A stretch of DNA of 64,000 nucleotides from Octopus vulgaris (lineage: Eukaryota): NCBI GenBank assembly GCA_951406725.2, contig OX597827.1, positions 18,228,001 through 18,292,000 of the forward strand. The letters run 5' to 3'. Made by a program: the position numbers and the translations under genes. Every line of letters begins with the position of its first letter. Within the stretch, counting starts at the first letter, position 1. Positions 1 to 6,174 of the stretch are shown one piece after another. The notes under the pieces are model-generated. The model was not told where the DNA came from and ran no database searches. It worked only from the letters and a program-made list of their open reading frames with translations.

Positions 1-287
1 TTATTATTATTATTATTATTATTATTATTATTATTATTATTATTATTATTATTATTATTATTATTATTATTATTATTATTATTATTATTATTATTATTAT
101 TATTATTATTATTATTATTATTATTATTATTATTATTATTATTATTATTATTATTATTATTATTATTATTATTATTATTATTATTATTATTATTATTATT
201 ATTATTATTATTATTATTATTATTATTATTATTATTATTATTATTATTATTATTATTATTATTATTATTATTATTATTATTATTATT
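1..287. repeat. (TTA)n microsatellite, runs to the window edge
   Basis: Perfect TTA repeat seen directly. Confidence 0.99.
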
Positions 288-520
288 CCTTCCGACGCCG
301 TTAGACGTACGTGAATCAGCTCCGTGAATTTGACACCAATTTCATTGGAAATCTATTAATAGGTTTGAATATTTTTTAATATTTCTGTAGCCAAACCGAC
401 CGGCTTCTTGCGGAGCTCGTCGGTTGGGCGAAATTTTGCCCCATTCGGGGTGAAATTGCGTTTGAAAATTTTGAACATTTGACATTTTTCAACATTTTGA
501 ATATTACAACAAGAAAAAAC

Positions 521-2398
521 ATGGCTATGAAGCGAACAGTTGGCTGTTCCTTCCTTCAAAATACACTCCCTCCGCAAACACGCACAACTCGTACAAAACA
601 CCCACTTCACGCCTTAAAAGGCAACAAAGATTCTCCTTCCGAACCGCAGAGCACGCGCTCGGTTCAAAAGGAAAATGCAAGTCATGACGTCGCGTTCGAC
701 GTAATTCTTGATTTTCCCCCTCTGCCTTCACCCAATGCTTTGGTAAGGAAGGAGGAGGGAGAAAAAACAAATACAAAAATCATCACAAACATTGACACGG
801 AGATAAAAGAAAAAACTTCCAACAATTTTGCTTCTGCTGCGAAGCAAATTTCGGAGGAAGTTAAGATAACTCTAGAAGATGTGAAAAGAGCGAAGGAATT
901 GTTAAGGAAGGATGGCAATGGTATCTTCCTCAATACTCCACAAGAGGTGATTGAAAGCACCAACAAGCAAACAATAATTTACAAAGTTTTCGACAGAAAA
1001 CTAAAAAGAATAACAAATGCCACACCCCAACAGTTGGAGATAGCTCTAAAGCCCATTTGGGCCCAAAAGAGCTACGTAACCAAGGGGAAGCGTTTTGGAA
1101 CCGTGGAGGTTCGCTTCCCAACAGAGGAGCTGGCAAGGGCGAACGCCATTTCGCCCTTGCAAACTGAGAATTTGTTACTAATTCCAACCCACCTCGGGCG
1201 AAGAGTTACAAAAATAAAAATCGACCTCGTCCCCCCTGAATTAAATATGTCATGGCTGGTGGCAGCTGTCCTCTATGATATAGAGGACACTACCACCATT
1301 CTAGATGTCAGGAGAGTGAGGGCGAAAAACTGGTTGGGGATGGGAGTGCTGCTTCTTGCGCAAATTCAGCAAGAGAATATAAGTAAAGTCCCTGATTTCG
1401 TAAGTTTGCCGGACGGCACTAGGCTAAACGTTGCTGTGGAGGGGCGAAAGCCAAAATGCTTTCTCTGCAGCAGCGAAAGCCACTTAAAGAGGGACTGTCC
1501 CATTCACAAAAAGAGGATGGAGGCTTTCAGCAAGAGGCAGCAGCAACAACAACAACAACAACAACAACAACAACAACAACAACAACAACACAAGCAACAA
1601 CAACAGAAACAACAAAAACAGCAAGAAACACCAAAGGCTGCCACACCACCAACACCATCACCAACACCAGCACCAAGACGAGCAACACCACCTCCAACAA
1701 CAACAACCACCACCAAACCAACACCGACAACCACCACCAAACCAACACCGACACCAGTACCTCGAAGGTCGACAGCAGCGACATCAACAGTAACAGGAGC
1801 AGCGGCACCACCGATACCGGTGGAACCAGAAACTTTTCGTCCTGCTACTGAAGCAGACCCCTCAACCATTCCTTTGCCGGATGAAGAGATCTCGGATTGT
1901 GCGAGCTCTGATTCCAACAAAGGAGAATGGAGTATAGTGCCTCCAAAGAAGAAAAGGAGGAAGAAACAAAAAGATTTACAGGGGAAGCACGAACAAATAG
2001 TGCTTCCCAACATCAACAACAACAACAACAACAACACACACTCACAACAACAAACAACAACAACACTTTCGACACCACTACTGCCACTGCCACACACACA
2101 AACACACACAGACACAATTACATCAATAAACACAAAGAACCAAAAACTAGTGGAGTACTTAAAAAACAAAACTAGTACAAATATAACCGATTTCATCATA
2201 CCAACACAAAACACACCACCAGCACACATTCTCACAATAAAAATAAATGCAAAATCATATGATGAAATCAAACAAATATTCCCTAACGATGTGGGATCGC
2301 TAGGGAAAAGTTTCTCGAAGAAACTTTATAAAAACATTGTGGAAGCACCCGTGCAAAAGCACAAGGGAGCCACCCCCACCACCAACAACAGTAAGTAG
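521..2398 (+). CDS. Tx1 ORF1 nucleic-acid-binding (gag-like) protein
   Basis: First ATG at 521 within ORF 479-2398. CX2CX4HX4C knuckle CFLCSSESHLKRDC, then polyQ, a Thr/Pro-rich tract and a basic KKKRRKK cluster. Confidence 0.85.
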   Translation: MAMKRTVGCSFLQNTLPPQTRTTRTKHPLHALKGNKDSPSEPQSTRSVQKENASHDVAFDVILDFPPLPSPNALVRKEEGEKTNTKIITNIDTEIKEKTSNNFASAAKQISEEVKITLEDVKRAKELLRKDGNGIFLNTPQEVIESTNKQTIIYKVFDRKLKRITNATPQQLEIALKPIWAQKSYVTKGKRFGTVEVRFPTEELARANAISPLQTENLLLIPTHLGRRVTKIKIDLVPPELNMSWLVAAVLYDIEDTTTILDVRRVRAKNWLGMGVLLLAQIQQENISKVPDFVSLPDGTRLNVAVEGRKPKCFLCSSESHLKRDCPIHKKRMEAFSKRQQQQQQQQQQQQQQQQQHKQQQQKQQKQQETPKAATPPTPSPTPAPRRATPPPTTTTTTKPTPTTTTKPTPTPVPRRSTAATSTVTGAAAPPIPVEPETFRPATEADPSTIPLPDEEISDCASSDSNKGEWSIVPPKKKRRKKQKDLQGKHEQIVLPNINNNNNNNTHSQQQTTTTLSTPLLPLPHTQTHTDTITSINTKNQKLVEYLKNKTSTNITDFIIPTQNTPPAHILTIKINAKSYDEIKQIFPNDVGSLGKSFSKKLYKNIVEAPVQKHKGATPTTNNSK

Positions 2399-5400: not shown

Positions 5401-5870
5401 CTCTGCCTGTTCGAGATAAACTCTACCGGCACGGAAGTGCCGTCAGCCGGGCCTGCCCGAGGTGTTGCCAGGACGACGAAACCGTTCTGCACGCACTCGT
5501 CCAGTGCCCGAGTATTGCTGAAATATGGGTTTATGTCGAACAGCTACTGTCACGTGTAGGACGGATCCGACTATCGGCCGAATCCATAGTGAAGATTGCC
5601 CCGCCGACCTCCTTTAACAAGGAGGGCGAGGCCGTTTTCTTGTGCCTAGTGGCTGTGGCGAAAGAGGTCGTGTGGTGGACTCGTTTAAAAGGGCTAAAGA
5701 CAGACACTTTCCTCTTTGGTCAAGGCCTCATCAACTTTTTCAAGTTTCACTTGAAAAGGAAGATGAGGTTAGAGAGGAAAGTGCTGTCCGATAGCAAGTT
5801 TTATGAAAGGTGGGTGAATTGTGCGAGACTGGCCTGTATAAATGGACCAGTTCTCAGGTTTCGCCTGTGA
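2436..5870 (+). CDS. Tx1 ORF2: APE endonuclease + reverse transcriptase + C-terminal zinc finger (1144 aa)
   Basis: APE motifs LNVRGL, SET, YAP, GDWN, YLDR, TDH. RT motifs FRPITLLN, LDQSKAFDRV, RQGCPLS, YADD. zf-RVT-like C-terminus. No stops or frameshifts. Confidence 0.96.
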   Translation: MANLRIGCLNVRGLGSPWKQGHLLNDLRFHDVDVAAISETRLSDPQELAALFGGYEIFLSPCRPGAGGGGTAVLFRKGLDLKIRTVFLDPEGKLVVLDVDGSDGGAFRLLAAYAPTGAGQSDYFKRLEVFLGTSRTLVLVGDWNAVLDERFDRVGRGASVRRGGGCKSLANLLGRFQLSDRFRLDNPNVPMWTWTNRIGSSRSYLDRVFCRPADKDSVGCPQFHLVEYTDHKLVICTVDLDRLHRQGPGYWKLNASLTACKAYRDRISLLVKRALTGAIINNNWWFALKRAIRVESIRYSKTLAIERRKRERDLVKKLDEALDTGIATDVLAARLALDQHFDAKHEGCVVRAKARSLNGEGTRAARWARVAEAKRGNKATIRSLVDQNGREVTQPKQMCTVLQRHFAQLFGTSGGTDTNGTDFGVYLDGLPQLSDSEAECCEGPISAWEVQEAMKSCTRGRSPGLDGLPYELYFSMPDLFADLLANVYCNWQQNGRIPAFVCRGVVALLKKDPNKGDVIGNFRPITLLNAELKILAKVLAKRLALVVDKLVGGTQTCALPTRSIHDNLHLMRYIIERVGNDAGAGGALINLDQSKAFDRVDHQYLAAVLKAAGFGPVFRGWIAALYSNICSVIRVNGHLSEPFDISRSVRQGCPLSSLLYILTLEPLLRKLEALRGIPRDLGGGNSVSAYADDVTVVVSSHRHISLIGETLNQYEAVTGAKINAEKSVGLQLGTWRGKPMPSNSVVGRWTDGPVKLLGVWFGPDLQVDKNWEEVTSRVARLTQKWAERKLSLKGRAEVANAYIASVIYYRLTVVPCPNRWLAKLVRLLFDFLWKGQVPLVRRSICCQRPLNGGLGMPWLLLRRHALRLRHLKRFLDGEQVWSSFVRRDFPQLVSLTELQTWIKRRPRKGAWHLECRQALSALHQAGNAVGYSSTLAFYRGLVEEKCDDVLGETLGVEDDELSSLFGRTFGPGPMDNFQRSLAWQCYRGALPVRDKLYRHGSAVSRACPRCCQDDETVLHALVQCPSIAEIWVYVEQLLSRVGRIRLSAESIVKIAPPTSFNKEGEAVFLCLVAVAKEVVWWTRLKGLKTDTFLFGQGLINFFKFHLKRKMRLERKVLSDSKFYERWVNCARLACINGPVLRFRL

Positions 5871-6174
5871 TTTCAAAGAAAAAGGTAATGTAAAAGGAGA
5901 AGAAAGGGGACTCTCTACACCCCCTTTTTTTGACCAGGCTCCCGTTGGCTTTTGTAGGGTTTTTTCCACCGGGAACATTTCGAGACGTCTCCCCCTTTTG
6001 GGAGTTTTTCATTGTTTTAATAATCATTGTTTTAAAGTTTTTTTTTACACGGATTTTTTAACAAACGGACAAAACCCTTTGTAACCTTTCGTCCTGTCCT
6101 GTCCCTTTATGTAATCATGCGTGTCAGCCCTTGTGGCCAATAAAAAAGAATTGATTATTATTATTATTATTATT

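Follow-up and report, generated by a model that had tools for sequence, protein, structure and literature searches.

We report on a 64,000-nt stretch of Octopus vulgaris DNA (contig OX597827.1 of assembly GCA_951406725.2, positions 18,228,001 to 18,292,000 of the forward strand; hereafter the window), which carries a full-length long interspersed nuclear element (LINE) of 5,866 nt with two open reading frames (ORFs) at window positions 288-6153 of the plus strand, lying within a TTA microsatellite. We propose that the family of this element prefers TTA microsatellites as landing sites and give this reading a probability of about 0.62. "Prefers" is used in the sense of PMC4494074, where more than 20% of the flanks of a family lie in one microsatellite. 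The proposal rests on the position of the element inside a TTA run which likely predates it, on the rarity of such positions in the window and on relatives that insert at a fixed point.

Probable insertion into a TTA repeat

The window opens inside a perfect (TTA)n microsatellite at positions 1-287 (plus strand; at least 95.7 copies at 100% by Tandem Repeats Finder, TRF), which continues beyond the window edge and forms the 5' part of the presumed target. The 5' junction reads ...TTATT/CCTT. At its other end the element closes with AATAAAAAAGAA at 6139-6150 and TTG at 6151-6153, and (ATT)7 follows at 6154-6174 (plus strand) and supplies the 3' portion of the presumed target. The repeat stays in phase across the element (...TTATT, element, ATTATT...) provided that the element ends at 6153, and with this proviso the in-phase TTA repeats described on both flanks in an earlier note on this DNA, made from the letters alone, are confirmed. 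The exact end is ambiguous because of the G at 6153, and a target site duplication (TSD) cannot be delimited because the insertion lies inside a perfect repeat. Among the 57,826 positions outside the element, 91 (0.16%) carry at least 18 nt of perfect TTA/TAA repeat on both sides, and 1,154 (2.0%) are flanked on both sides by at least 18 nt of a single perfect repeat of any 2-6-mer. Pure chance is an unlikely explanation for an insertion into a TTA run. One site at 2% odds, selected by a reader, favours a TTA preference and is no proof of it.

The 3' run is also the (AAT)n 3' end of an adjoining retroposon, a 575-bp non-coding dispersed repeat on the minus strand (6175-6750) whose end lies 21 nt from the LINE insertion point. 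Two other copies, 86-88% identical, occur in the window at 58903-59461 and 59550-60021 (minus strand); both have ATT runs at the matching end and long TTA runs at the opposite end, and (TAA)n is present at both ends in all three copies. Since both other copies carry the run at that place, the TTA/ATT run likely predates the LINE, and the 575-bp repeat is, from these alignments, likely the older of the two insertions. The earlier note's view of (TTA)n as the insertion site therefore stands in that the run was probably pre-existing; it had overlooked that a second retroposon terminates in the 3' repeat and thereby provides a rival candidate for the target. Assignment of the 575-bp repeat to the minus strand follows from the truncation of the copy at 59550-60021. 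No long ORF and no useful Rfam match were found in this repeat. Its polarity, with (TAA)n at both ends, is that of Dong (PMC3774820), and it is likely a non-autonomous, Dong-like, TAA-targeted retroposon, which may be mobilised by Dong. Two copies have the same 5' end, and two copies stand in tandem.

The LINE was likely inserted into a pre-existing (TTA)n run by target-primed reverse transcription. Its two proteins (ORF1p and ORF2p) would bind the element RNA, probably via the 3' hairpin and AATAAA and not via a poly(A) tail, and the apurinic/apyrimidinic endonuclease (APE) would make its nick in the (AAT)n strand, at a T/A step located 21 nt from where the older element ends. Pairing of the released ...AAT-3' end with AUU at the 3' end of the RNA could then prime cDNA synthesis, and second-strand joining within the repeat would leave no recognisable TSD.

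Anatomy and age of the element

Both reading frames are free of interruptions, as the earlier note had stated. A 5' untranslated region (UTR) of 233 nt (288-520, plus strand; CpG observed/expected ratio, o/e, 1.6) is probably full length, given the intact ORF1 downstream. ORF1 (521-2398, plus strand, 625 amino acids, aa) has a predicted RNA-binding region at about residues 133-310, a CCHC knuckle at C314 and a low-complexity tail rich in Q, T and P. ORF1 proteins of the Tx1 clade have one or more RNA-binding domains and a CCHC knuckle, and the window element resembles them weakly in this feature: the knuckle call is weak, with a Pfam zf-CCHC E-value of 0.027, under the Pfam cut-off, while residues 133-327 match ORF1 of a relative (L098) at 26% identity (E 6e-17). 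Look-alikes of ORF1 in the Atlas were CCHC/ZCCHC3-type RNA-binding proteins with scores of 0.90-0.93, which serve as a lead only. After a spacer of 37 nt follows ORF2 (2436-5870, plus strand, 1144 aa), with an APE domain, a reverse transcriptase (RT) with a YADD motif and a C-terminal CCHC. The corresponding Pfam matches are Exo_endo_phos at residues 10-231 (E 5.5e-17), RVT_1 at 514-759 (E 4e-30) and zf-RVT at 980-1031 (E 1.3e-8). In an alignment with human L1 ORF2p, residues N10, E39, Y114, D142, N144, D206, D230 and H231 match active-site residues of the L1 endonuclease (L1-EN), and D592 and YADD 690-693 match the RT aspartates, so that the APE and YADD motifs are intact as claimed. The best match of ORF2 in PDB is human L1 ORF2p (E 5.7e-52), and R2 is matched at E 4.6e-23. 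Judged by its two ORFs, N-terminal APE, RT and C-terminal CCHC, the element is an L1-group APE-type non-LTR (long terminal repeat) retrotransposon.

The 3' UTR (5871-6153, plus strand, 283 nt) contains a predicted small hairpin with loop CTTGT at about 6127-6137, followed by AATAAA and AAAGAA-TTG. A poly(A) tail, usual in the L1 group though not universal, is absent at the 3' end of the element. The short A tail noted earlier does correspond to a few A at the end, which are a polyadenylation-signal-like AATAAA plus three further A and not poly(A). The GC content of ORF2 is indeed high, 55.5% versus 38.6% in the rest of the window. Its CpG o/e is only slightly higher (0.98 versus 0.82, or 0.84 without microsatellites); the CpG richness noted earlier is mostly a GC effect, and CpG content was rejected as a sign of youth. 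Since the host is barely CpG-depleted, CpG content is weak evidence of youth.

The age of the family was assessed from public sequencing runs. Twenty of the 24 runs listed (10 studies, 3 coded organisms) contain 65-77% of the words of the element, and no RNA run is listed among those that contain it. Contigs of four runs were mapped on positions 2100-6180, without the masked repeat at 6142-6180. In run X1, 15,666 contigs aligned, 2,670 of them at 99% identity or more, 3,428 at 95-99%, 5,296 at 90-95% and 4,272 below, a spread suggestive of a young family that belongs to a broader radiation. The window copy differs from long pieces at 20 of 3,341 bases in run X2 and at 21 of 3,097 bases in run X10, about 0.6% in each case (among the 32 of 28,370 pieces listed). 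The youth proposed earlier is thus supported: these comparisons indicate a young family of many copies, with a divergence of about 0.6% from the majority sequence in two public runs, and the window copy appears recent and intact, yet not identical to the majority sequence. Among the 40 of 773 rows listed, the 16 best-supported, near-fixed deviations of the window copy from the majority comprise 8 synonymous and 8 non-synonymous changes, with none at catalytic residues. Contig depth rises from 5' to 3' in X2 and is flat in X10, and was not used as evidence.

No loose contig ends were seen at the 3' end of the element among the 24 of 3,657 listed, positions 6142-6180 being outside the mapping. 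No second copy of the family occurs elsewhere in the 64-kb window, viral contigs gave no match by alignment, protein or motif, and a plasmid collection gave no match to the element. Profile scans of metagenomes and genomes found no full-length locus closer than about 44%, and none of these collections yielded a locus from an octopod. The sole other member of the lineage in the window is a dead sister-family fragment at 9499-8780 (minus strand), with 72% DNA identity and an in-frame stop; it is bordered by (TATC)n at the 5' junction and by (GTAT)n on the 3' side, where it is broken. Positions 23461-24183 of the window hold a fragment of an unrelated RT with 24% identity to P0001.

Relatives and the shared 3' hairpin

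The named relatives at 54-66% identity are proteins of Argonauta hians, which makes an octopod host probable, and octopod paralogues range from 54 to 74% identity. Among full-length relatives whose flanks are readable, the nearest (41-43% aa identity; loci L081-L125, for example L088:5659-5720, L092:275-340 and L115:5547-5610) lie in apparently animal DNA of assembly G001, where 57 of 85 ORF2 matches are near full length and stand head-to-tail at a spacing of 6.4-6.8 kb on about 17 contigs. These arrays are pure, with several subfamilies mixed. Each relative ends in a hairpin and AATAAA, without a repeat tail, and is directly joined to the next copy. At both of two distinct truncated junctions, 17 nt of a sister copy's 5' end, the same in each case, precede the start of the truncated copy. 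These findings suggest, from the junctions, that the G001 relatives may target their own 5' end. With this fixed insertion point, they show that the lineage is capable of site-directed insertion. A single literature search aimed at such head-to-tail arrays found no description of them. G001 itself is titled as a bacterial metagenome-assembled genome while holding many eukaryotic LINE-array contigs, which is likely host contamination in a reference genome collection. Another Tx1-like tandem array is formed by the P0064 cluster of Patella caerulea, eleven of whose listed ORF2 proteins carry adjacent locus tags on a single chromosome.

A FastTree phylogeny was built from 143 of 225 RT segments (thinned representatives, 366 columns), without named Tx1L, Keno, Kibi, Koshi or Dewa sequences. 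P0001 and P0003 are joined with a support of 1.0 and are then sister to the 41-43% relatives (0.999), and P0001 falls outside the subclade of the U2/U1-flanked elements L005, L008 and L122, the backbone towards which has a support of just 0.17-0.21. The U2-flanked L008 matches ORF2 at 29% identity over residues 4-1137; the alignment with human L1 covers residues 4-861 only. Membership in the Tx1 clade is probable from the anatomy together with this full-length homology to target-specific Tx1-type elements, and the earlier description of an intact Tx1-type element is upheld in the sense of an L1-group, Tx1-like one (anatomy, domains, full-length homology). The adjacent small nuclear RNA (snRNA) sequences of these Tx1-like elements are U1 at L122:3036-3199 and 9961-10137, and U2 at L008:5815-5977 and L005:4675-4885. 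In the phylogeny the U1-flanked L122 clusters with the U2-flanked L005, a hint that the target may have switched between U2 and U1.

A 4-bp stem around CTTGT is common to the element, two tail types of short interspersed nuclear elements (SINEs) in the window and five relatives. Across nine sequences 32 of 36 cells pair and three of the four pairs vary on both sides; slid controls were 28-56% paired. The recurrence of the hairpin is suggestive only, because the nine sequences are related and were chosen by motif. The whole 3'-end fold is no better than shuffles (z 0.56), and just the 4-bp hairpin recurs. Out of 580 element windows, the last 20-30 nt of the element gave the best match to the tail of the commoner SINE, and a similarity as high was reached by 0, 8 and 59 of 1,000 shuffles for three units, which is significant for two of the three.

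The commoner SINE is abundant and consists of internally repeated 184-bp units (30209-30984, 53294-53894, 18216-17985, 13948-13560 and 19253-19100). Its tail, with a CTTGT-loop hairpin and an AATAAA-like motif, resembles the 3' end of the element, making the two a candidate SINE-LINE pair. The second tail type occurs at 31120-31200, 58470-58520 and 13600-13550 (minus strand), the three sites in the window that best match L088 in its 3' hairpin region (scores 36, 34 and 32; shuffled best 26-32), and in three of four copies its terminus is a short ATT or ATT(GTT)n. The label "MetaSINE" for the window SINEs was not confirmed by supplement searches and we do not claim it. Partner LINEs of MetaSINEs are described as not known in PMC4824008.

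Competing explanations and known systems

Several results weigh against a TTA preference of the family. The case is one insertion only (n = 1), picked for looking unusual. TTA or TAA follows none of the 53 3' ends of the 41-43% relatives (34 of them distinct, from 43 overlapping loci of one assembly), so TTA is not the ancestral target of the lineage. No TTA run follows any of the four terminal ends of the SINEs whose tail is similar, which would argue against strictness if the family mobilises these SINEs. The window copy has probably drifted and need not be competent, given that 8 of its 16 near-fixed differences are non-synonymous. The sister fragment counts little, since it is 3'-broken, its flank units differ and the window is 20% tandem repeat. 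A T/A step within TAA is, moreover, similar to 5'-TTTT/AA, the relaxed site of L1 (PMC1950540). The betaB6-betaB5 hairpin loop, which shapes the target choice of L1-EN according to the same source, has 9 residues in the ORF2 APE (between T193 and S203), as in L1-EN, and not 11 as in Tx1L and TRAS1; R1Bm, with two residues fewer than L1, is specific despite its shorter loop (PMC1950540). By comparison of these lengths, the 9-residue loop appears neutral to slightly against strict specificity. The loop varies among octopod paralogues and has 11 residues in the G001 relatives.

The alternative that survives best is relaxed L1-like targeting, in which the APE nicks T/A steps anywhere in AT-rich DNA and the copy landed or was retained in TTA by chance. 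The L1-length loop and the mixed flanks of the SINEs with a similar tail (0 of 4 in TTA) would suit such an endonuclease, the host is rich in microsatellites (tandem-repeat cover of the window is 13% for perfect repeats and 20% for TRF arrays of period 10 or less), and the window was picked by a reader seeking oddities. We nevertheless consider it rather unlikely, since the TTA condition holds at just 0.16% of positions and the any-repeat condition at 2%, and since relatives insert at a fixed point. It is improbable that the target was the 3' end region of the flanking 575-bp retroposon and not TTA as such. In its favour, 21 nt separate the insertion from the end of that repeat, other Tx1 families are known to insert into transposons (Tx1L in Tx1D, Tx1-Mar in Mariner-N4; PMC4494074), and the relatives target a retroelement end, their own. 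However, most long TTA runs in the window are tied to the 575-bp repeat, so that adjacency is expected under plain TTA targeting, and 21 nt probably exceeds the footprint of an APE. That (ATT)7 is the self-made tail of a microsatellite-tailed LINE, with the 5' TTA an unrelated neighbour or an assembly join, is very improbable even with SINEs of the second tail type ending in short ATT or ATT(GTT)n (three of four copies, with a hairpin like that of the relatives) and with a window that begins inside the 5' run, because the older repeat, which ends in such a run in both of its other copies, already accounts for the 3' run, the relatives end at AATAAA without a repeat tail and two coincidences would be needed.

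A far-reaching version of the preferred reading goes beyond TTA preference. The family would be a strictly (TTA)n-specific, still active Tx1-type family that converged with Dong in opposite orientation and with an L1-length loop, in a lineage devoid of poly(A). Abundant octopod SINEs would have acquired the 3' CUUGU hairpin of this lineage, so that the family would be the LINE partner missing for them so far, and a sister lineage would have been retargeted to its own 5' end and formed pure tandem arrays. We hold this combination to be doubtful; the SINE ends without TTA argue against the family being both strict and the SINE partner.

Dewa elements target tRNA gene arrays, and the window holds no Rfam match at gathering score that would indicate a Dewa-type insertion. 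Nor is there a Keno-type insertion into U2 snRNA, as no Rfam snRNA or tRNA match was found in the window. Many Tx1 families are sequence-specific, as the earlier note stated: Tx1L of Xenopus targets Tx1D, Keno targets U2 snRNA and Tx1-1_ACar a telomere repeat (PMC4494074, PMC1950540, PMC10088271). The window element shares clade-type anatomy with these three, and its ORF2, of about 1,150 aa, matches U2-/U1-flanked elements over nearly its whole length. Microsatellite preferences in the clade include those of the teleost elements Kibi for (TC)n and Koshi for (TTC)n, and of the crocodilian Tx1-1_Crp group for (TTCC)n/(TTTC)n (PMC4494074, PMC3812793). The window element shares with them a two-ORF, APE-type, L1-group organization within a microsatellite. 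Their specificity is seen in many copies, whereas the window element offers one site, in an octopod host, and its flanks are (TTA)n, a unit without C, instead of (TC)n or (TTC)n. That Tx1-type LINEs can target microsatellites is therefore already known and the mechanism is not new.

Dong, of the R4 lineage, is specific for TAA repeats in Bombyx, Anopheles and Biomphalaria (PMC3812793, PMC3774820), and Dong-R4 elements are abundant in O. vulgaris (PMC13282606). Dong shares the TAA/TTA microsatellite with the window element. R4-clade elements use a restriction-like endonuclease (PMC4640811), whereas the window element has an APE and two ORFs instead. The orientation is opposite, because TAA is on the sense strand of Dong (primer in PMC3774820) versus TTA on that of the window element. 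For O. vulgaris, 80 L1-Tx1 consensus families have been reported, 13 of them recently active with 421 insertions (PMC13282606), and the window family may well be one of these; the word "target" is absent from the main text of that paper. Repbase, Dfam or the Zenodo library of O. vulgaris may already include it. No report of TTA- or TAA-targeting Tx1 elements, or of target preferences of octopus Tx1 elements, was found in the open-licence literature searched, including the available parts of PMC9115989, PMC8967140, PMC10294476, PMC4758252, PMC3747384, PMC4640811 and PMC10088271.

If the TTA preference is true, it would add a new A/T-only unit and a new cephalopod (octopod) host to the targets of the Tx1 clade, and two unrelated endonuclease classes, APE and the restriction-like enzyme of Dong, would act on one repeat. 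Through the hairpin common to their 3' ends, the element is also a candidate LINE partner of SINEs that are very common in octopods. The basis of APE specificity was described as not well understood in 2013 (PMC3812793), and octopod paralogues with differing loops make it testable in a close series. Should the far-reaching combined reading be true, these paralogues at 54-74% identity would be a natural series for APE target switching.

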